Origin: Acidobacteriota bacterium
Lineage (GTDB): Bacteria > Acidobacteriota > UBA6911 > RPQK01 > JAJDTT01
Assembly (NCBI GenBank): GCA_965217775.1
Contig: CBDCJH010000002.1
Span: 3,872,001-3,936,000 of the forward strand
DNA length: 64,000 nt
Reading direction: 5' to 3'
The notes beneath the pieces are model-generated. The model saw only the letters and a program-made list of their open reading frames with translations, made no database searches and was not told the origin of the DNA. The position numbers and the translations under genes were made by a program. Shown here one piece after another: positions 31,996 to 42,206 of this stretch. Position 1 is the stretch's first letter. Each line of letters begins with the position of its first letter.

Positions 31996-34815
31996 ATGAG
32001 CCAACAGAATGGGCACGTATCCGCGACCATCGATGGACAATCCGTTTCCGTCCTTCGCGGAGCGACCATTCTGGAGGCCATGAAGCCCATTGGGCGCACC
32101 GTTCCCACGCTCTGCTACTCCGATCGAATGGAACCGTTCGGCGCCTGCCGGACCTGCCTGGTGGAGCAGGTGGGAGGCAAACCGGTCGCTTCGTGCCACA
32201 CCCAGGTTCGGGAGGGCGGCGTCTACACCACCCGATCCCCCCTGCTGACCCGCCTGCGGCGCAACATCACCGAGTTGATCGTCTCGGACCATCCTCTGGA
32301 ATGCCTGGACTGCACCGCCAACGGGCGCTGCGAGCTCCAGTCGCTGGCCCAGGACGTGGGTCTGCGCACTCCTCGCTACGACAGTCCGCGCATCCACACC
32401 CCGCCGATGGACAACACCCATCCCTTCATCAAGCTGGAGATGGACAAGTGCATCGGCTGCGCCCGGTGCGTGCGGGCGTGCGACGAGATCCAGGGTTCCT
32501 TCATCCTGGGAATGTCCGGGCGCGGCTATGACGTCCAGGTCATTGCGGGCAACGACACCGGGTTCGAGGAGGCGGACTGCGTCAGTTGCGGCCAGTGCGT
32601 TTACGAGTGCCCCGTCGCCGCCCTGGAGGAGACCCAGACCCGGGCTCATGGCCTGCCTGACGAGACCGTCACCACGACCTGCAGTTACTGCGGAGTCGGG
32701 TGCTCTCTGAACGTGAACATGAAGGACGGGGAGATCGTCAACATCGAGCCGAATCCTGAGGGGAGCGCCAATCTGGGGCACACCTGCGTCAAGGGGCGGT
32801 TCGCCCATCAGTTCGGCAAGAGCAAGGACCGGCTTCGAGTTCCGCTGATCAAGGACGGCGACGGCAATTTCCGCGAGGCCTCCTGGGACGAGGCCTTCGA
32901 CCTGATTGCCCGCAAGCTGTTGGAAGTCCGGGAACGGTACGGCCCGGAAGGTTTCGCCTTGATCAGTTCGTCCCGCTGCACCAACGAAGAGAATTTCCTG
33001 ACCCAGAAGTTCACCCGCACCATCATGCGGACCAACTCCGTGGACAATTGTTCGCGGGTCTGCCACTCCCCCTCGGCCTTCGCCCTGGGCGCGGCTTTGG
33101 GGACGGGAGCGGGGACCAACAGCTTCCAGGACGTGGAAAAGTCGAAGCTGCTCATGATCGTGGGCGCCAATCCCACCGAGGCTCACCCGGTCTTCGGCGC
33201 CCGCATGAAGCAGGCCGTCCTCAAGGGCTGCCAGCTCATCGTACTGGATCCCCGGAACACGGAACTGGCCCGGTGGGCGGACCTCCACCTGGCTCTGACA
33301 CCGGGTTCAAACGTCGCCGTCATCAACGCCATGCAGCATGTTCTCCTCACGGAGAGGCTCATCGACCAGAACTTCATCGACCGGTACAGCGAAGGCTTCG
33401 AGGAACTCAAGGCCGAGTTGGCTTCCTGCACGCCCGAGTGGGCCGGTGAGATCAGCGGAGTGGAACCCGATCTGATCCGAAAGGCGGCCCGGATGTATGC
33501 GGCCAGCGGCGCCAGCCAGATCCTGTGGGGTCTGGGGGTGACCGAAGCCGGACACGGGTCCAATGCCGTCTTCGGCATGATCAACATGGCCGTCATGACC
33601 GGAAACATCGGCCGGCCGGGCACCGGAACCTGTCCCATCCGGGGACAGAACAACGTCCAGGGCGCGTCCGACATGGGCGCGCTGCCCAACGTCTTCAGCG
33701 ACTACCGCCAGACCACGGATCCCCAGGCTCGGGCCGAGCACGAAGAGGTCTGGGGATGTCCGGTACCGGACAACACCGGACTGCGCATTCCCGACATGTT
33801 CGACGCGGCGCACGAGGGAACGCTCAAGGCCATGTACGTACTGGCCGAAGACATCGCCCAGTCGGACCCGGATACGGCCCATGTGGTGGGGGCTCTGGAA
33901 AAGCTGGATTTCCTGGTGGTCCAGGACATCTTCATGTGTGAGACGGCCAAGTACGCCGACGTCGTGCTGCCCGGATCCACCTTCCTGGAAAAGAACGGCA
34001 CCTTCACCAACTCCGATCGCCGGGTCCAGCGCGTCCGAGAAGTGGCGGCGCCTCCAGGCGAACTCATGGCCGACGGAGACGTGGTCAACACGGTGGCCCG
34101 CCGCATGGGTTTCGACCTCGGTTTCGACGACGGTCCGGGGACCCCCATCGATCCCAGCCGGATCATGGACGAGATCGCGCGGCTCACTCCCAAGTGGGGC
34201 GGCGTCCGCTACGACCGGCTCGAGCAGGAGGGGTTTCTCCAGTGGCCCTGCTACGACGAGAACCACCCGGGCACTCCTATCGTCCACGAGGGGGGCGACT
34301 TCCTGCGCGGCAAGGCGCAGTTGACGGTCACGCCGTGGCAGGAACCGGGTGAGCTGCCCAGCGACGAGTTCCCCTTCTATCTGACCACCGGCCGGATGCT
34401 CTTCCACTACAACGTGGGGACTCAGACCCGCCGCACCGCCGTGAGCAAGCTGGACAAGGCCCGGGAAGAGAAGGTGCGGATCCATCCCCGAGACGCCCGC
34501 TCCCTGGGCATCCGGGAAGAAGAGTTGGTGGACGTCATCTCCCGCCGGGGACGGGTTCGGGTCAAGGCCGAGATCACCAAGGCCAGCAACGTGGGCACCG
34601 TCTTCATGACCTTCCACTATCCCGAGACCCGAACCAACATCCTGGTGGGAGACGCCAAGGACGAGTTCACCGGTTGTCCCGAATACAAGGTCAGCGCGGT
34701 TCGGCTGGAGAAGGTAGCCACCGGGATCGAAGAGAGCTTCGCCCTACCCGGCGTGACCATCGAAGGCGAGCCGGTGCCGGTGGACCACCGGGAACTGGCC
34801 CTGGCCAAGGCGTAG
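31996..34815 (+). CDS. fdhF: Formate dehydrogenase alpha subunit (FdsA/FdhF-like, Cys-type)
   Basis: N-terminal Fe-S clusters, CSYCGVGC, CVKGRF, NCSRVCH, RGQNNVQG, PEYKVSAV. Confidence 0.93.
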   Translation: MSQQNGHVSATIDGQSVSVLRGATILEAMKPIGRTVPTLCYSDRMEPFGACRTCLVEQVGGKPVASCHTQVREGGVYTTRSPLLTRLRRNITELIVSDHPLECLDCTANGRCELQSLAQDVGLRTPRYDSPRIHTPPMDNTHPFIKLEMDKCIGCARCVRACDEIQGSFILGMSGRGYDVQVIAGNDTGFEEADCVSCGQCVYECPVAALEETQTRAHGLPDETVTTTCSYCGVGCSLNVNMKDGEIVNIEPNPEGSANLGHTCVKGRFAHQFGKSKDRLRVPLIKDGDGNFREASWDEAFDLIARKLLEVRERYGPEGFALISSSRCTNEENFLTQKFTRTIMRTNSVDNCSRVCHSPSAFALGAALGTGAGTNSFQDVEKSKLLMIVGANPTEAHPVFGARMKQAVLKGCQLIVLDPRNTELARWADLHLALTPGSNVAVINAMQHVLLTERLIDQNFIDRYSEGFEELKAELASCTPEWAGEISGVEPDLIRKAARMYAASGASQILWGLGVTEAGHGSNAVFGMINMAVMTGNIGRPGTGTCPIRGQNNVQGASDMGALPNVFSDYRQTTDPQARAEHEEVWGCPVPDNTGLRIPDMFDAAHEGTLKAMYVLAEDIAQSDPDTAHVVGALEKLDFLVVQDIFMCETAKYADVVLPGSTFLEKNGTFTNSDRRVQRVREVAAPPGELMADGDVVNTVARRMGFDLGFDDGPGTPIDPSRIMDEIARLTPKWGGVRYDRLEQEGFLQWPCYDENHPGTPIVHEGGDFLRGKAQLTVTPWQEPGELPSDEFPFYLTTGRMLFHYNVGTQTRRTAVSKLDKAREEKVRIHPRDARSLGIREEELVDVISRRGRVRVKAEITKASNVGTVFMTFHYPETRTNILVGDAKDEFTGCPEYKVSAVRLEKVATGIEESFALPGVTIEGEPVPVDHRELALAKA

Positions 34816-34836
34816 CCTCCGAACTTTCCATGTACA

Positions 34837-34915
34837 GGAGCGGCGGTTTCCCAGCCGCCGAACTCCTTTCTAAGCGTCGAAGATTGGGGGAATGGGGGAC
34901 AAGAATGTCCCCTCT
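34837..34915. repeat. REP-like palindrome pair downstream of the fdh stop
   Basis: GGAG-cggcgg tttcccag ccgccg and ggggaca agaa tgtcccc. Confidence 0.65.
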
Positions 34916-34930
34916 TACGTCTCTCTCGGA

Positions 34931-35136
34931 AAGAAGGGGACAGTCTGTTTTGCTGCCGTGCTGCCGTGCCGCGCGTGCTGCCGTGCCGCGCGCGTTCCGT
35001 TCCGGAAAGGGACAGTCTCGATTCCGGTCTGGAACGGTCCTACACATCGAGCGGGTCCGAAAGAAGGGGACAGTCTGTTTTGCCGGTTTTTCCGTGCCGC
35101 GCCGGGAAGCCGCGGAAAGGGACAGTCTCGATTCCG
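34931..35136 (+). repeat. Left short-repeat array flanking RAYT
   Basis: aagaaggggacagtctgttttgc at 34931 and 35061 alternating with ggaaagggacagtctcgattccg at 35004 and 35114. Confidence 0.88.
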
Positions 35137-35378
35137 ATCCGGATCCGCGGATCCGCGAGTGGGCCCGCGCGATTGCGGATGGGATCAAGCTGCTCTTGTA
35201 TGGCCGGGCCGCCGGGATTGGACCGCCTCGTCGCGATCCTCGTTCAAACCTGCTTCCCCTGTTCTCCTGAACCGTCAGGAAAGTGGGGAAAGTCCAGAGT
35301 CTATTGGGCGGTTTCCGTGATCTGGGTCGTTCGGTGCCACGGTGGCAGAATCGACGGACGGGCGGAGATCAGGCGAGT

Positions 35379-36314
35379 CTACGTGACGAAGGCGTGCGAG
35401 CGCTGCTCCCGCAGGGAAAACAGCACTCCGCCCAGTTGGGGGATGGGGTGTCGGCGACGCCGATATCGACCTTGCTTTCGATACGTCTCCAGCAGCTGCG
35501 CCACCTTCTCTGCCGGACCGACGGCCAACCCGTCCGTCAGAAATCGCAAACGCCGGAGAAAGGCTCCGGCACGGGTAAATCCACGTCGCTGCTCCTGAAG
35601 GAGGATCCACCGGGGGATCGCAGCCTGGTTCTCCCGGGTGGGGACGGCTCCTCGATAGTACAAGCGAGCCCGGTAACTACTGTACACGTCCGCTCCGGGA
35701 TCCGAGGGGAACAGTTCCTCCAGTGGAATCAGATCTTGATCCTCGCCAGTGAGTCTCCAGCGGGCCGAGCCCCACTGCCATTGCTCGGGCCTTTTGACCA
35801 GTCCGGCCCGGACGGCGTTGAGTTCCACGTAGAGGATGGCGTCCTGGACGGCTTCGCTTCCCAAGAGTTCCAGGTTCTTGAAACGATCACCCCAAAGATG
35901 GCCTCGCCGTTTGAAATTGCGGTTGAACCACCGGGCATAGAACCCGTCCACGTTCGCCATCAGTTTCGACACGTCAAAGAGACGCTGGTTGAAAGCCTCC
36001 CACTGGGCGACGGTCCAATCGGCGGTTTTCTTCTCTGCCTGTTGTCCATAAAGCTTGTGGGCGCTGTCCATCAACTCGTCGCGGGACAGGGGGCGGGGTT
36101 TCTCAAAATGGATGACGAAGTGGAAGTGATTGCCCATGATCTGGAAAGCGGCCAAACGACACCGGTAGACATTGACGTAGAACGACATCATGTCCAGGAG
36201 TTTGCGACCGGCTTCGTGGTTTTTAAAGGGGAACCAATCGGAATTGCCGGCGACTCGATTGGTGAGGTGATAGAAGGCGGCTTCTGAACTCTTGTGTCGT
36301 GCGGCTCGGGGCAT
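35379..36314 (-). CDS. REP-associated tyrosine (HUH/Y1) transposase, RAYT-like
   Basis: MPRAAR...FYHLTNR, IMGNHFHF (HUH), RRGHLWGDRFK, YVELNAVRAGLV...WQWGS. Confidence 0.9.
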   Translation of the reverse strand: MPRAARHKSSEAAFYHLTNRVAGNSDWFPFKNHEAGRKLLDMMSFYVNVYRCRLAAFQIMGNHFHFVIHFEKPRPLSRDELMDSAHKLYGQQAEKKTADWTVAQWEAFNQRLFDVSKLMANVDGFYARWFNRNFKRRGHLWGDRFKNLELLGSEAVQDAILYVELNAVRAGLVKRPEQWQWGSARWRLTGEDQDLIPLEELFPSDPGADVYSSYRARLYYRGAVPTRENQAAIPRWILLQEQRRGFTRAGAFLRRLRFLTDGLAVGPAEKVAQLLETYRKQGRYRRRRHPIPQLGGVLFSLREQRSHAFVT

Positions 36315-36514
36315 GGCCACGATCCTCGGTTCGGTTAATCGGACTCGGACTCGCGGGGTAGTCGTTTCGCAAACCTTTATGACACCAACGATTCAGAACT
36401 GAGAAAGGCGAAGGAAACTCAAGAAAATCACCAAACCTCCCGTTTGCGGAAGCAACCGAGGAAACTTGACCAAGTCGCCACCTCAGTTGTCTTTGCAGGC
36501 CCGTGCCCCTCGGT

Positions 36515-36836
36515 AAAACAGACTGTCCCCTTCTAATAAAACAAATAAAACATGCCCGTCCCCGTCCCGGGCAAAACATGCCCGTCCCCGTCCCGGCAAA
36601 ACAGACTGTCCCTTTCTTGCCTTCGGCGTGTCCCTTTCTTGCCTTCGGCGAAGGAGCCGACACCTTTGTGGTCTGCCCTGTGCCTCCCGTCCCAGCAAAA
36701 CACAGCAAAACAGACTGTCCCCTTCTTGCCCCGGCATGCCCCGGCATGCCCCGGCAAAACAGACTGTCCCCTTCTTGCCGTCCCCTTCTTGCCCCCCCTT
36801 GCCCGTCTGCCCTGCCTCGCTTGCCCGTCTGCCCGA
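36515..36836 (-). repeat. Right short-repeat array flanking RAYT, inverted relative to the left array
   Basis: Four aaaacagactgtccc(c/t)tt copies (~36515, 36598, 36707, 36756) among stuttered micro-duplications. Confidence 0.88.
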
Positions 36837-36838
36837 CC

Positions 36839-37035
36839 ATCCCGAGACCCGCACCAACATCCTGGTGGGAGACGCCAAGGATGAGTTCACCGGTTGTCCC
36901 GAATACAAGGTGAGTGCGGTTCGGCTGGAGAAGGTGGTCACCGGGATCGAAGAGAGCTTTGCCCTGCCCGGCGTGACCATCGAAGGTGAGCGGGTGCCGG
37001 TGGACCACCGGGAACTGGCCCTGGCTAAAGCCTGA
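36839..37035 (+). pseudogene. Orphan duplicate of the last ~65 codons of the formate dehydrogenase alpha gene
   Basis: Direct repeat of 34619-34815 (offset 2220), ending in its own TGA. Confidence 0.93.
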
Positions 37036-37050
37036 TCGCCGGATTCAATC

Positions 37051-38112
37051 TCAATCCCCGTTCCAGTTCGTGGAATCCAGCCCGAAGTGTTTCATCTGCC
37101 GGCGGATCCGGTCCCAGGTCTGGTCGTCCACCTCGATGCCTTCCGACTCGCGCTTCCGGGCACTCCGGAATTCCGGCTCGCCGGGAAGCAGGATCTCCCG
37201 GAAGCCGGGAGCCAGACGGCTGGTTCGGATGTGGGCGATCATGGCATCCAGTTCATCGTAGTAGGTTTCCAGTTCGGTGAAGTGCTCGATGTGGTAGACG
37301 GTCAGGAGTACTCCATTGCTGACGAACTTGGGGGCGCCGGCCGCGCAGCCCTCGCCGCCAACGGCTCCTCCCATGACCTCCACCATCATGGACAGTCCGT
37401 AGCCCTTGTGAGCTACCACCCCGCCCAGAGGGAGGAGCGCCCCGGGTGGATCGGATTTCACCTTCTGCGGGTCGGTGGTGGGCCTGCCCTGGAAGTCGAC
37501 GGCCCAACCCTCGGGGATGGACTCACCGCGGTTGATGGCCACACGAACCTTCCCTTCGGCCACCACCGAAGTGGTCATGTCCAACAACAGCGGTTCGTGG
37601 CCGCGGCGGGGGGCGGCGAAGGCCAGGGGATTGGTGGACAGCCGGCCTATCCGGCCCCCGAAGGGGATCACCTGCGCGCCCAGATGTCCCGCGTTGGCGA
37701 AGAGCTGGGCCATGAATCCGGACCGGGCGGCCATCAGTGGATAAGCCCCCACCCGGCCGATATGGCTGGTGTTGCGCAGGGTCACGGTCGCCACACCGTG
37801 GACTCGCGCCTTCTCCATGGCCAGCCGGGTCGCGAAGGCGGCACCCACCTGCCCCAGGGCGCCTCCTCCGTCCACCACGGCCGAGCTGGGACGTTCCTGG
37901 ACGATCCTGGGCCGGGCGCCGGGATTGAAGCGGCCGTCACGAATCCCTTGAGCGTACTCGTAGAACCGGATGGCTCCATGGGAATCGTGGCCGAAGAGGC
38001 TCGACTCCACCAGGTGGTCCACTACGACCTGGGCATCCTCCGGACGACAACCCGCGGCCTGGAAGAGCCGATAGCCGACTTCCCTCAGGGCTTGGGGGGA
38101 GAACCTGGGCAA
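37051..38112 (-). CDS. Ldh_2 family (malate/L-lactate-like) oxidoreductase
   Basis: GHDSHG, RNTSHIGR, STNPLAFAAP, LDMTTS, HKGYGLS, ILLPGE. Confidence 0.92.
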   Translation of the reverse strand: MPRFSPQALREVGYRLFQAAGCRPEDAQVVVDHLVESSLFGHDSHGAIRFYEYAQGIRDGRFNPGARPRIVQERPSSAVVDGGGALGQVGAAFATRLAMEKARVHGVATVTLRNTSHIGRVGAYPLMAARSGFMAQLFANAGHLGAQVIPFGGRIGRLSTNPLAFAAPRRGHEPLLLDMTTSVVAEGKVRVAINRGESIPEGWAVDFQGRPTTDPQKVKSDPPGALLPLGGVVAHKGYGLSMMVEVMGGAVGGEGCAAGAPKFVSNGVLLTVYHIEHFTELETYYDELDAMIAHIRTSRLAPGFREILLPGEPEFRSARKRESEGIEVDDQTWDRIRRQMKHFGLDSTNWNGD

Positions 38113-38148
38113 GGGAGTACTCCTTTCCTGCGCCGTATCCGTCGTTCT

Positions 38149-39204
38149 CTAACCGGCCGCCGGCAGGGGCAAGCCGAGACGTTCCATGTCAGCGCCGATG
38201 AGGGACCAGGTCTTGGCGTCGATGTCGATTCCATTTATTTCCCTCTGTTGAGCCGATCGCAGCTCAGGCTCCCCTGGAAGCAGGATCCCGTGAAACCCCG
38301 GGGCGGGCGGGCTGGACCGGACGTACCGGATCAACGCCTCCACCTCCTGGTAGTAGTCCTCCAGGTCGATGAAGTGATCGATCCGATGGACCACCAGGAG
38401 CATGCCGTTGCTGACCATCTCCGATTCACCGACGCAACATCCCTGGCCGCTCAGGGTTCCCGCCAAGAGCTCCACCATGAGGCTCATCCCGTATCCCTTG
38501 TGGGACGCGATTCCGCCCAGGGGGAGGATCGCGCCTCTCGGTTCGGCCCTGAAACTGTCGGGATCGGTGGTGGGGCGTCCCTGGTGATCGATGAGCCATC
38601 CTTCCGGCACCCGTTTCCCGGCGTAGGAGGCGACCCGCACCTTGCCTTCGGCGGCCACTGACGTGGTCATGTCCAGAAAGATGGGCTCCGTGTCGCGCCG
38701 GGGGGCCGCGAAAGCCAGGGGATCGGTGGTGAGACGCGCGTCGATGCCACCGAAAGGCGCAATCTGGTTTCCGAAGCGGCCGCCGTTGACAAAAGCCTGG
38801 CCGATCATTCCGCCGCGGGCCACCATCAACGGGTAGGCCCCGACTCGGCCCACGTGGCTCGTGTTGCGCAGCGAAACCGCGGCCACTCCATGCTGGGAGG
38901 CCTTGTCCATGGCCAAACGGGTGGCGAAGGCGGCGCCAACCTGACCCAGCGCGCCGGCGGCGTCCACGACCGCACAGGAGGGATGGTCCCGGACCACTCT
39001 GGGCTGGGCCTTGGCCTGGAAACGCCCCTTCCGGATGGCGTCCATATACTCAGGGTAACGGATGACCCCGTGGGAATCGTGTCCGAAGAGATTCGACTCC
39101 ACCAGATGATGGGTGACGACCCGGGCATCCGCCGCGTCGCATCCGGCGGCCTCGAAGAGCTGGTAGCCGATCCGGCGCAGGGTTTCGGCTTGGACGATGG
39201 GCAT
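38149..39204 (-). CDS. Ldh_2 family oxidoreductase, tandem paralogue
   Basis: GHDSHG, RNTSHVGR, LDMTTS, HKGYGMS, ILLPGE. Confidence 0.92.
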   Translation of the reverse strand: MPIVQAETLRRIGYQLFEAAGCDAADARVVTHHLVESNLFGHDSHGVIRYPEYMDAIRKGRFQAKAQPRVVRDHPSCAVVDAAGALGQVGAAFATRLAMDKASQHGVAAVSLRNTSHVGRVGAYPLMVARGGMIGQAFVNGGRFGNQIAPFGGIDARLTTDPLAFAAPRRDTEPIFLDMTTSVAAEGKVRVASYAGKRVPEGWLIDHQGRPTTDPDSFRAEPRGAILPLGGIASHKGYGMSLMVELLAGTLSGQGCCVGESEMVSNGMLLVVHRIDHFIDLEDYYQEVEALIRYVRSSPPAPGFHGILLPGEPELRSAQQREINGIDIDAKTWSLIGADMERLGLPLPAAG

Positions 39205-39362
39205 GGCGGCAATTTCTCCAGCGGCGGATTGTAAAGGATGGGGTCCCTACTGTCAGCCGCCGATCCGGCAAGAATCGGCGGGGGAGATTGCCAGACTCGG
39301 CTCTCCGTTGGCAAAATGGAGCCCGCCAACGTCTTTGAGACGTTCACGGGAAGGGTAGCGCA

Positions 39363-40235
39363 ATGGACACCTCTTTCACCAACAGTCGAGAAAGCCTGGA
39401 GCGGGCGAACCGGGTCCCGGAAAGCCATTGGCACAGTCTGAACCGCGCCCAGCAGTTTCGTTCCATCGAGTTGGACGGTTTCGCCGTCGTTCCTGATCTC
39501 CTGAGCGAGGAACTGATGGAGGAGATCCGGGAGGAGACCTCCAGAGTCCCCACCACCGCGGTCGATTACAGCGAGCATCAGCGATACTTTTCCGATGTGC
39601 AGTGGACCGACTCACCCCACGCCACCTCGGTCATTGCTCTGCCGGCCACGGTGGAGTTCCTGGAAGAACTCCTGGGTGACAAGCTGATCTGCACCTCCTC
39701 CTCGTATGTCGAGTCCAGGCCGGGCCACCCGGGAATCTCCATTCACACCGATGCCCAGCCCTACGGGTCCAAGATATTCGGAATCGCGTCCAGCTCGCCC
39801 TGCCTGGTCCGAGTCCTCTACTACCTGGACGACCTGACTCCGGAGTGCTCCCCCTTCAAGGTCATTCCGCGCTCCCACCTGTCGCTGCACAGCGACGCCA
39901 ACCCCTACAACAAATACCTTTCCCACGACGATGAGTTGATGGTGACCTGCCGCGCCGGCTCGGCGGTGATCATCAACCAGAAGGTGTTTCACGGCAACTT
40001 TCCCAACTACAGCGACCGGATCCGCCGCATGTTCGCCATCGCCTACCGGCCCGCCTGGGCGGGTCCCATAGACGAGGTTCCCGAGCGCGACCCGGAGCAG
40101 GTGGCCGGTCTACCTCCGGCCGTCCGTAAATACTTCAGGAGCCTGAATACACGGAGGATCGAGTTCGATTTTCCGAACCGCCCGGACAACCTGGCGAGGC
40201 ATGCCGCGGGCATCTCGCCCGGCCGCTGGAGCTGA
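39363..40235 (+). CDS. PhyH family dioxygenase, tandem copy 1
   Basis: HTD facial-triad motif, YYLDDLT...FKVIPRSH, distal FHGN. Confidence 0.88.
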   Translation: MDTSFTNSRESLERANRVPESHWHSLNRAQQFRSIELDGFAVVPDLLSEELMEEIREETSRVPTTAVDYSEHQRYFSDVQWTDSPHATSVIALPATVEFLEELLGDKLICTSSSYVESRPGHPGISIHTDAQPYGSKIFGIASSSPCLVRVLYYLDDLTPECSPFKVIPRSHLSLHSDANPYNKYLSHDDELMVTCRAGSAVIINQKVFHGNFPNYSDRIRRMFAIAYRPAWAGPIDEVPERDPEQVAGLPPAVRKYFRSLNTRRIEFDFPNRPDNLARHAAGISPGRWS

Positions 40236-40347
40236 TCCAGGTTATGAGGGGATGGGACGCCGCGATTCACCGCCTGGACCGAAGCGCACCTTGCCCCAGA
40301 CAGGAACGATTCGGACCAGGAAGAATGAAGGGAGGAAGGGGAGAGAA

Positions 40348-41220
40348 ATGGACACTTCTTTCACCAACAGTCGAGAAAGCCTGGAGCGGGCGAACCGCGT
40401 CCTGGAGGGCCATTGGACCAGTCTGACCCGGCCCCAGCAGTTTCGCTCCCTCGAGTTGGAGGGTTTCGTCGTCGTTCCTGATCTGCTGAGCGAGGAACTG
40501 GTGGAGGAGATCCGCGAGGAGACTTCCAGGCTCCCCACCACGGCGGTCGATTACAGCGAGCATCAGCGGTACTTGTCCGATGTGCAGTGGACCGACTCAC
40601 CCCGATCCACCTCGGTCATTGCTCTGCCGGCCACGGTGGAGTTGCTGGAAGAGCTCTTGGGCGACGAGCTGATCTGCACCTCGTGCACGTACGCCGAATC
40701 CAGGCCGGGCCACCCGGGAATCTCCTTTCACACCGATGCCCAGCCCTACGGGAACAAGACCTCCGGAGTTCTGACCAGCTCGCCCTGTCTGGTCCGCGTC
40801 CTCTACTACCTGGACGACCTGACTCCGGAGTGCTCCCCCTTCAAGGTGATTCCACGCTCTCACCTGTCGCTGCACAGCGACGCCAACCCCTACAACCGCT
40901 ACCTTTCCCACGACGATGAGTTGATGGTGACCTGCCGCGCCGGCTCGGCGGTGATCATCAACCAGAAGGTGTTTCACGGCAATTTCCCCAACTACAGCGA
41001 CCGGATCCGCCGCATGCTGGCCATCGCCTACCGGCCCACTTGGGCGGGTCCCATAGACGACGTTCCGGAGCGCGACCCGGAGAAGGTGGCCGGTCTCCCT
41101 CCGGCCGTCCGAAAATATTTCAGAAGTCTCAACACGCGGAACATTAATTTCGATCTGCCGAACCGCCCGGACAACATGGCGAGGCATGCCGCGGGCATTT
41201 CGCCTGGGCGCTGGGGCTGA
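40348..41220 (+). CDS. PhyH family dioxygenase, tandem copy 2
   Basis: 290 aa from MDTSF, collinear with copy 1. Confidence 0.88.
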   Translation: MDTSFTNSRESLERANRVLEGHWTSLTRPQQFRSLELEGFVVVPDLLSEELVEEIREETSRLPTTAVDYSEHQRYLSDVQWTDSPRSTSVIALPATVELLEELLGDELICTSCTYAESRPGHPGISFHTDAQPYGNKTSGVLTSSPCLVRVLYYLDDLTPECSPFKVIPRSHLSLHSDANPYNRYLSHDDELMVTCRAGSAVIINQKVFHGNFPNYSDRIRRMLAIAYRPTWAGPIDDVPERDPEKVAGLPPAVRKYFRSLNTRNINFDLPNRPDNMARHAAGISPGRWG

Positions 41221-41333
41221 TCCCGGGATATGGGAGGACGGGACGCCGCGATTCCTCGCCTGGATTCAGGCGGACCTGGCCCCAGACGGAGTAGACTCAG
41301 ACCAGGAAGAACGAAGGGAGGATAGTTAGAGAA

Positions 41334-42206
41334 ATGGATACTGCTTTCACCAACAGTCGAGAAAACCTGGAGCGGGCGAACCGGGTCCCGGAAAGCCATT
41401 GGCACGGTCTGACCCGCGCCCAGCAGTTTCGTTCCCTCGAGTTGGAGGGTTTCGTCGTCATTCCGGATCTGCTTAGCGAGGAACTGATGGAGGAGATCCG
41501 GGAGGAAACCTCCAGGGTTCCCACCACGGCAGTCGATTACAGCCCCCATCAGCGGGGCTGTCCCGATCTCCAGTGGACCGACTCGCCCCGAGCCACGTCG
41601 GTGATCGCCCTGCCGGCCACGGTGGAGTTCGTGGAAGAGCTCTTCGGAGACGAGTTGATCTGCACCTCCTGCCAATATGCCGAGTCCAGGCCGGGCCACC
41701 CGGGAATCGCCATTCACACCGATTCCCAGCCCTACGGTTCCAAGATCTTCGGAGTCCAGGCCAGTTCCCCCTGCCTGGTCCGCGTCCTCTACTACCTTGA
41801 CGACCTGACCCCGGAATGCTCCCCCTTCAAGGTGATTCCGCGCTCCCACCTGTCGCTGCACCGCGACGCCAACCCCTACAACCGGTACCTTTCCCACCAC
41901 GATGAGTTGATGGTGACCTGCCGGGCCGGCTCGGCGGCGATCATCAACCAGAAGGTGTTTCACGCCAACTACCCCAACTACAGCGACCGGACTCGCCGCA
42001 TGCTGGCCATCGCCTACCGGCCCACCTGGGCCGGTCCCATAGACGATGTTCCGGAGCGCGATCCGGACAAGGTGGCCGGTCTCCCACCGGCCGTCCAGAA
42101 ATATTTCAGGAGCCTCAACACGAGGAACATCGATTTCGATCTGCCGAACCGCCCCGACAACATGGCGAGGCATGCCACGGGCATCTCGCCCGGCCGCTGG
42201 AGTTGA
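41334..42206 (+). CDS. PhyH family dioxygenase, tandem copy 3
   Basis: 290 aa, collinear with copies 1 and 2. Confidence 0.88.

Follow-up and report, generated by a model that had tools for sequence, protein, structure and literature searches.

RAYT genes behave largely like housekeeping genes; their Group 1 is the most similar to insertion sequences (IS) and shows the highest duplication rate among the RAYT groups, 6.2% (Bertels 2017, PMC5581495). A 2021 account states that there is "no evidence of tnpAREP mobility" (PMC8266576). For the E. coli enzyme TnpA_REP, which cleaves DNA over 400 nt away from its site, single-stranded DNA (ssDNA) circles and flank capture have been proposed (PMC3333891); ISCR1 has been modelled through a flank-carrying circle that integrates by homologous recombination (PMC7707992). 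The TIRtron/TIRYT family is defined by inverted repeats with a GGGGWSAS motif (Di Nocera 2013, PMC3733652), and subclass 2.1 genes have been connected with recombination at lanthipeptide genes, a link that was later qualified (bioRxiv 10.1101/2020.03.09.984088). TIRYTs appear uncharacterised in the literature covered, which here and below means the accessible parts of the papers cited. In this study, we analyzed a 64,000-nt stretch of an Acidobacteriota genome (the window; GCA_965217775.1, contig CBDCJH010000002.1) in which a TIRYT element lies between the convergent genes for formate dehydrogenase (fdh) and an Ldh_2-family dehydrogenase (Ldh), bracketed by two diverged copies of the fdh 3' end. 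On either side of the cassette lies a different allele of the entire fdh/Ldh junction, and a single homologous crossover is the favoured, sequence-based explanation.

The source genome is called G000 (contigs C1 and C2) and its eight congeners G001-G008; the relatives' records are Acidobacteriota metagenome-assembled genomes, and R and L numbers label individual element loci. The locus, in window coordinates and with terminal inverted repeats abbreviated as TIR, is composed as follows.

31996..34815, plus strand: fdh alpha subunit, intact open reading frame (ORF) of 939 aa (TIGR01591, 823.6 bits against a cut-off of 666), its 3' end being repeat copy 1
34619..34815, plus strand: repeat copy 1, the functional fdh 3' end (sequence alignment)
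34816..34914, no strand: allele A of the host spacer, containing two REP-like hairpins (near 34836-34867 and 34895-34912), outside the element
34915..34926, minus strand: 12-nt remnant of an A-type Ldh_2 3' end (R-E-T-stop), as in G003 (alignment)
34927..35135, minus strand: downstream TIR array of four GGGACAGTC-core units, R-type alternating with inverted L-type, with short stutter duplications
35379..36320, minus strand: Y1 HUH transposase (TIRYT; PF01797), likely start ATG 36314, 311 aa
36508..36838, minus strand: upstream TIR array of four L-type units with stutters, adjoining the orphan
36839..37035, plus strand: repeat copy 2, the orphan fdh 3' end, with final codons and stop as in G007
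37036..37050, no strand: allele B of the spacer, short and matching the empty site of G007 (alignment)
37051..38112, minus strand: Ldh_2-family dehydrogenase, intact, convergent with fdh (PF02615, 358.7 bits)

The two fdh ends (34619-34815 and 36839-37035) align without gaps over 197 bp at an offset of 2220 with 15 differences, comprising 11 synonymous codons, two non-synonymous codons (A>V and P>R) and a TAG/TGA stop swap. This reproduces the repeat reported in the initial annotation; a partial codon at the 5' edge also differs and lies outside the repeat. The synonymous bias is strong (binomial P = 1.6e-5, with 49.7 synonymous and 142.3 non-synonymous sites), so the orphan is not a product of simple decay, and both alleles evolved as coding sequence, as had been claimed. 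The claim that the orphan directly abuts the right array was likewise correct, the array ending at 36838 and the repeat beginning at 36839. Direct repeats around an element suggest target duplication, and the locus could accordingly be read as an old, long target-site duplication whose orphan has decayed. The 11:2 bias contradicts this reading, as do variant bases and a spacer common to other lineages, and we give it virtually no chance.

The real duplicated unit is longer than 197 bp, since on the left it extends across 34816-34926 as another allele of the spacer and the Ldh end. This stretch aligns to the empty-site spacer of G002 and G003, including both hairpins, the last three Ldh codons and the stop, and the orphan is followed by the short spacer found in G007, the closest genome. 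With a G002/G003-like spacer after copy 1 and a G007-like spacer after the orphan, the cassette lies between two alleles of the whole junction. The initial annotation had placed a REP pair inside the module. The two hairpins, the two arrays and the Y1 gene do lie between the fdh copies, but the hairpins occur at empty sites too, so the REP pair is evidently host DNA, the spacer of the other lineage, and outside the element. Both hairpins fold (z -4.45 and -2.31), and with up to two mismatches the genome holds 10 copies of the first and 64 of the second. A GGGGTCAG motif is present in the A-type Ldh end adjoining the junction and may be a chance occurrence. Beyond the junction, 37051-42206 contains two tandem Ldh_2 paralogs, with a third homolog at about 3910264 of C2, and three similar tandem ORFs, the first of which is a PhyH-family dioxygenase.

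Synteny in relatives, which the initial annotation had put forward as a check, supports its proposal that the cassette arrived by 3'-end replacement. The two ends are followed by the spacers of two lineages, and fdh and Ldh are adjacent with the site empty in six of the eight congeners (G001, G002, G003, G005, G007 and G008). In G004, about 12 kb of other DNA separates the genes. In G006 the site is occupied by a TIRtron of reversed orientation, and there it is the Ldh 3' end that is duplicated (205 bp, 95%), an independent, mirror-image event. An element at this site without any duplication, the case named as refuting the proposal, was not found among the eight congeners.

The element is a multi-copy, TIR-flanked Y1 transposase cassette of the TIRtron/TIRYT type: it has a Y1 HUH gene with the catalytic tyrosine, GGGGWSAS inverted ends on both sides and non-REP ends. 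The protein carries the motifs NHFH, YVELNA and WGS; H63, H65 and Y162 are invariant among 58 aligned proteins, and the 311-aa length of its homologs agrees with the start at ATG 36314. No solved structure was found by sequence match. The structure model (pLDDT 87), which has a structured C-terminal region, finds its best fold match in E. coli TnpA_REP (4ER8, E 2.4e-6) and also matches IS200/IS608 TnpA. At E 0.001, the transposase had no Bac_DnaA_C, HTH_23 or HTH_28 Pfam match, and its score against the RAYT family model NF047646 was 51.3, under the cut-off of 80. The L-type units contain GGGGACAG and the R-type units GGGACAG, in inverted orientation on either side of the gene. All eight units fold no better than shuffles (z -1.55 to 1.31), and they are therefore not REP hairpins; no GTAG-tagged cognate REP hairpins occur at the element ends, the hairpins present belonging to the host spacer. 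The picture of a lone, domesticated, REP-associated RAYT is thus contradicted, the genome holding 11 copies. The outermost fdh-side unit within 34927-35135 is an inverted L-type TIR, possibly a relic of an earlier element in the G006 orientation.

To account for the two alleles, we propose that a circle of the cassette plus about 310 bp of junction DNA from a sister lineage integrated through a single homologous crossover within the fdh 3' end, a reading to which we give an even chance of being correct. The transposase would cut ssDNA at a variable distance outside the TIR and join it, thereby capturing adjacent host DNA; the circle would reach a co-occurring relative; and a RecA-type crossover within the captured piece would duplicate it, leaving fdh with a foreign end beside a chimeric orphan. 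The repeat-flanked unit could afterwards pop out and re-enter through recombination alone. One junction may plausibly have been made by HUH chemistry. A preference for convergent gene ends is probable, as it would leave both genes functional; the convergent orientation is taken from the repeat loci and from reading of the loci, not from an automatic orientation count. A ComEC gene is present in the genome.

The crossover itself is suggested by a change in the allegiance of G007, which matches copy 1 at six of the first seven differing sites and the orphan at seven of the last eight. Copy 1 is identical to G007 over 34616-34715 and has 13 differences from it over 34716-34815. The switch has a permutation P of 0.016-0.053 (0.027 with the stop counted as one site, and doubled if either direction is allowed), and a rough likelihood ratio favours it over no switch by 4-54 at match rates of 0.6-0.75. 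Two separate crossovers would tend to produce a long identical run between differences, but none here exceeds 33 bp. L073 shows a comparable switch, and R5 a weak one. The reading needs two things, namely flank copying beside a TIR, which is seen as near-identical duplications at R6 (915 bp, 3 mismatches) and L050 (247 bp, 97%), and DNA exchange between lineages, which is shown by the allele mix.

The same near-identical copies at R6 and L050 also suit an origin in situ, in which nicking by the transposase duplicated the local flank, identical at birth, and an ordinary double crossover later exchanged one side for the allele of a relative, one of the two crossovers falling in the repeat or in the 1.3-kb cassette common to lineages with an element at the same site. 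Consistent with this, roughly 15 sites are occupied across the genomes, some elements join flanks from different sites, the genomes are mosaic, patterns with a native left and a foreign right side and no switch dominate, and one L058 segment has no synonymous and three non-synonymous changes, mostly derived in the orphan, as in neutral decay. At the present locus, however, this requires two crossovers no more than about 33 bp apart, or else the 100-bp identity of copy 1 to G007 would have to be coincidental. The orphan carries four synonymous changes where copy 1 equals G007, and just one congener has an element at the site, in the opposite orientation. We consider this origin, the main rival to the circle, rather less likely than not.

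Closest to the idea in the initial annotation is one-ended integration (homology-facilitated illegitimate recombination), in which linear foreign DNA comprising an fdh end, the spacer and the cassette underwent homologous recombination at an upstream point of fdh, while its free TIR end became linked, perhaps through the transposase, to recipient position 34619. Orphans end within about 0-60 nt of a TIR unit, and L026, L043 and R8 have the native-left, foreign-right pattern expected. This route predicts an all-native orphan and an all-foreign copy 1, but in the 5' half G007 agrees with copy 1 and not with the orphan; no extended foreign tract is evident upstream, though mosaicism blurs this. 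We regard it as improbable.

The footprint recurs in the genus. Within fixed windows, direct repeats of at least 45 bp flank 16 of 63 genus copies, compared with 7 of 300 random positions, a control unmatched for intergenic position and set against related, hence non-independent, copies. Five further repeat loci (R5, L043, L051, L066 and L076) were found outside these windows. Repeat lengths range from about 60 to 1618 bp, the longest being at L076 (97.7%); most repeats are gene 3' ends that reach the stop or nearly so, and some take both convergent ends. Reading frames of the segments were chosen by codon usage. Pooled over the 20 non-redundant of 27 segments, the changes amount to 95 synonymous and 56 non-synonymous (pN/pS, the ratio of non-synonymous to synonymous changes per site, 0.21); R10, L045 and both L073 segments were left out for redundancy, and one L077 segment, R7 and the short segment of R11 because they are non-coding or paralogous. 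The identity of ungapped coding segments (81-100%) overlaps the between-genome range (86-99%). The 60-bp repeat at R7 was dropped as an element footprint because it is a neighbouring paralog. In a quick screen, lone TIR cores elsewhere in G000 had no such gene-end repeats.

Several observations weigh against integration of a flank-carrying circle. At most other loci for which usable relatives exist (R8, R11, L033/L045, L043, L075 and L026), a copy that resembles the native allele over its whole length faces one that resembles a foreign allele, and no clear switch is seen. A switch may be masked by erosion of the ends (the R8 and L073 repeats differ in length), yet this suits the rival explanations equally. 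The genomes are mosaic, with 0-13 differences per 100 bp from G007, so the switch could be a tract of G007 itself, and the 3' half of the orphan still differs from G007 at about nine sites. Scans for foreign-tract length gave no clear tract, the genomes being mosaic. The transposase gene at the locus is not foreign, differing by 11-16 nt from three other copies in G000, and later conversion must be assumed. A circle junction was not seen in contigs, which could not resolve one, and no conserved dinucleotide was found among 15 junctions; CT, the cut site of E. coli TnpA_REP, occurs at none of the 15 on the orphan side. Several repeat-less sites instead miss 68-206 bp of the empty-site sequence, and such target loss would fit the variable joining points of one-ended integration. 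The search at other loci for duplicated gene ends, proposed in the initial annotation, was fruitful within the genus and gave none at 40 loci in ten genomes of other genera. The sole repeat there (190 bp) is the element's own 3' flank, and no gene-end repeats were found at four G011 and G023 loci. The repeats are thus not an obligatory footprint but an additional feature that, among the genomes compared, is confined to this genus. A scan of metagenomes yielded mainly short, distant loci.

That the TIRYT family is mobile is clearly indicated by presence and absence at an orthologous site together with sets of copies 98-99.9% identical in three other genomes. G000 has 11 full-length transposase copies with 83-100% protein identity, one with an internal stop; its congeners have 7, 10, 11, 6, 7, 4 and 7 copies, and a fragmented genome has one partial copy. 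Some 15 sites common to the genomes carry elements, in one orientation or the other, and some elements join the flanks of different sites. Transposase gene trees group mostly by genome and not by site; this points to conversion or replacement, so transposase identity cannot date the arrival. In other genera, G063 has seven copies at more than 99%, G065 five at more than 98% and G062 three at more than 99.7%. Flanks are unrelated among the G063 copies and among the G065 copies; the elements thus move like insertion sequences.

Other loci of the family are recorded here in their own right. L282-L288 (G063) and L291-L296 (G065) carry terminal units and stutters distinct to each set and would be well suited to defining exact ends and targets, and L302-L304 (G062) form another set of near-identical TIRYT copies. 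At L040, L030, L059 and L063, either the two flanks correspond to different G000 sites or just one of them can be placed; TIRtrons thus mark rearrangement breakpoints in the genus. In L092 (G000:C2:1199000-1214000), three TIRYT copies are accompanied by nested duplications of the 3' end of a methyltransferase gene, and the TIR-bounded cargo resembles a split restriction-modification gene in which a transposase has inserted, together with a trypsin-like protease (named by eye). TIR-bounded blocks without a transposase lie at C2:4741160-4743014 and 4256140-4257544 of G000, where congeners have full elements. At R2 (G000:C2:2873000-2874800), the full gene lies between partial copies of the 5' and 3' ends of the element itself, as if it had inserted into an older copy. 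At C2:5635604 and 4665981, G000 encodes two further Y1 proteins (about 220-240 aa); neither hairpin family of the window was found within 2.5 kb of their genes.

Tentatively, and with somewhat less than an even chance, we further suggest that the TIRtrons of the genus spread between species carrying their own landing homology, in a homing cycle that is free of an integrase. The Y1 enzyme would circularise the cassette with a neighbouring gene end, host recombination would insert it at the matching locus with the convergent genes unbroken, and the resulting repeats would allow the unit to pop out and re-home. If true, this would explain how RAYT-like genes reach new genomes and would swap protein C-termini between species. 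The recurrent footprint provides many natural examples in one genus and suggests a route for the exchange of gene 3' ends between co-occurring bacterial species; the family offers defined ends, targets and predictions for a first in vitro test of this enzyme class.

The junctions were compared with contigs from public short-read runs, X12-X15 from one study, which may include the source sample, and X16 from a second. Zero-mismatch contigs cover the fdh-side junction over 34776-35221 in X12 and X13, to 35173 in X14 and to 35139 in X15; in X16 this junction is present at low depth and a related empty-site strain at high depth. On the orphan side, 36664-36868 is matched in X12 and X14 and enters the orphan by just 30 nt, missing the bridging rule by one, and 37000-37103 is matched in X14 with one mismatch. 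An assembly artefact, which the initial annotation had named as a refuting case, is contradicted by these contigs as far as testable. A chimera of two strains merged in the metagenome-assembled genome would fit the 7.5% contamination of G000, the repetition of a C2 region by contig C1 at 93-94%, the several related strains in the runs and the lack of any single contig over the whole module in X12-X16. Yet the fdh-side junction recurs in four runs and the second study, the other junction is matched in two, and seven other assemblies have the same architecture, with repeats common to G000 and G007 and to G002 and G003. A chimera is therefore very improbable. Contig C1 (144 kb), in which the R8 site is empty, is probably from a sibling strain binned into G000. 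At 37023-37029, X12-X15 contigs leave the orphan-type sequence with mutually inverted loose ends resembling another insertion sequence with a target duplication of about 7 bp in a co-occurring strain.

Among described systems, TIRtron/TIRYT (PMC3733652), which corresponds to subclass 2.1 (PMC6006769) and Group 1 (PMC5581495), shares with this element the Y1 gene, the GGGGWSAS inverted repeats, often clustered, and the non-REP ends. Genomes here have 4-11 copies at 73-100% identity, whereas subclass 2.1 has a mean of 1.9 copies at 49% (PMC6006769). Of the motifs of that subclass (NH[YF]H, W[EQ] or FQ, Y---NP and SS), NHFH agrees, but W(G/S), YVELNA (NP in four copies) and GS deviate; most copies here have YVELNA where subclass 2.1 has Y---NP. 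The C-terminal HTH-like domain of subclass 2.1 (Bac_DnaA_C, HTH_23 or HTH_28) gave no Pfam match here. Unlike subclass 2.1, the 311-aa protein shares with subclass 2.3 an insertion following the HUH strand. The latter (Quentin 2018, PMC6006769) is also alike in its long protein (median 325 aa), beta3-alphaC insertion, multiple copies and absence of REPs. It differs in being reported mainly from Chromatiales and Alteromonadales, in its motifs (NHYH, WE, YVDLNP and TS, against NHFH, W(G/S), YVELNA and GS here) and in an insertion of 55 aa, against about 40 by eye here. The structure model places two extra helices at residues 78-111. As far as the published descriptions go, the transposase lies between subclasses 2.1 and 2.3 of PMC6006769.

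The main text of the TIRYT paper (PMC3733652) does not mention "direct repeat", "target site duplication" or "duplicat", nor does the accessible part of Quentin 2018 (PMC6006769) mention "direct repeat". The gene-end footprint is undescribed in the literature searched, which largely excludes subscription journals and excludes supplements (e.g. PMC3333891 Figure S7, captured gene fragments). The REPtron/RAYT E. coli TnpA_REP is the nearest in fold (PDB 4ER8; PMC3333891, PMC8266576). Local tandem amplification near the recognition site here resembles models for the amplification of bacterial interspersed mosaic elements (BIMEs) by REPtrons. REPtron/RAYT genes are described as mostly single copy and need GTAG-tagged hairpins, whereas the present element is multi-copy and such hairpins are absent from its ends.

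Integrative elements such as prophages in icd replace the 3' end of their target, a diverged end restoring the gene while an orphan remains, and use an integrase and one fixed att site. Unlike them, the present element has no integrase, many target genes and variable repeat length. ISCR and IS91 elements have Y2 enzymes with ori and ter ends, in contrast to the Y1 fold and family here with inverted units at both ends; unlike in ISCR1, the duplicated DNA here appears to be chromosomal housekeeping gene ends from sister species. ISCR1/IS91 (PMC7707992) nevertheless resemble the route proposed here in having an HUH enzyme, a captured flank, a circular intermediate and homologous integration that duplicates the flank. 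The footprint at this and the related loci is real, recurrent and built from known parts.

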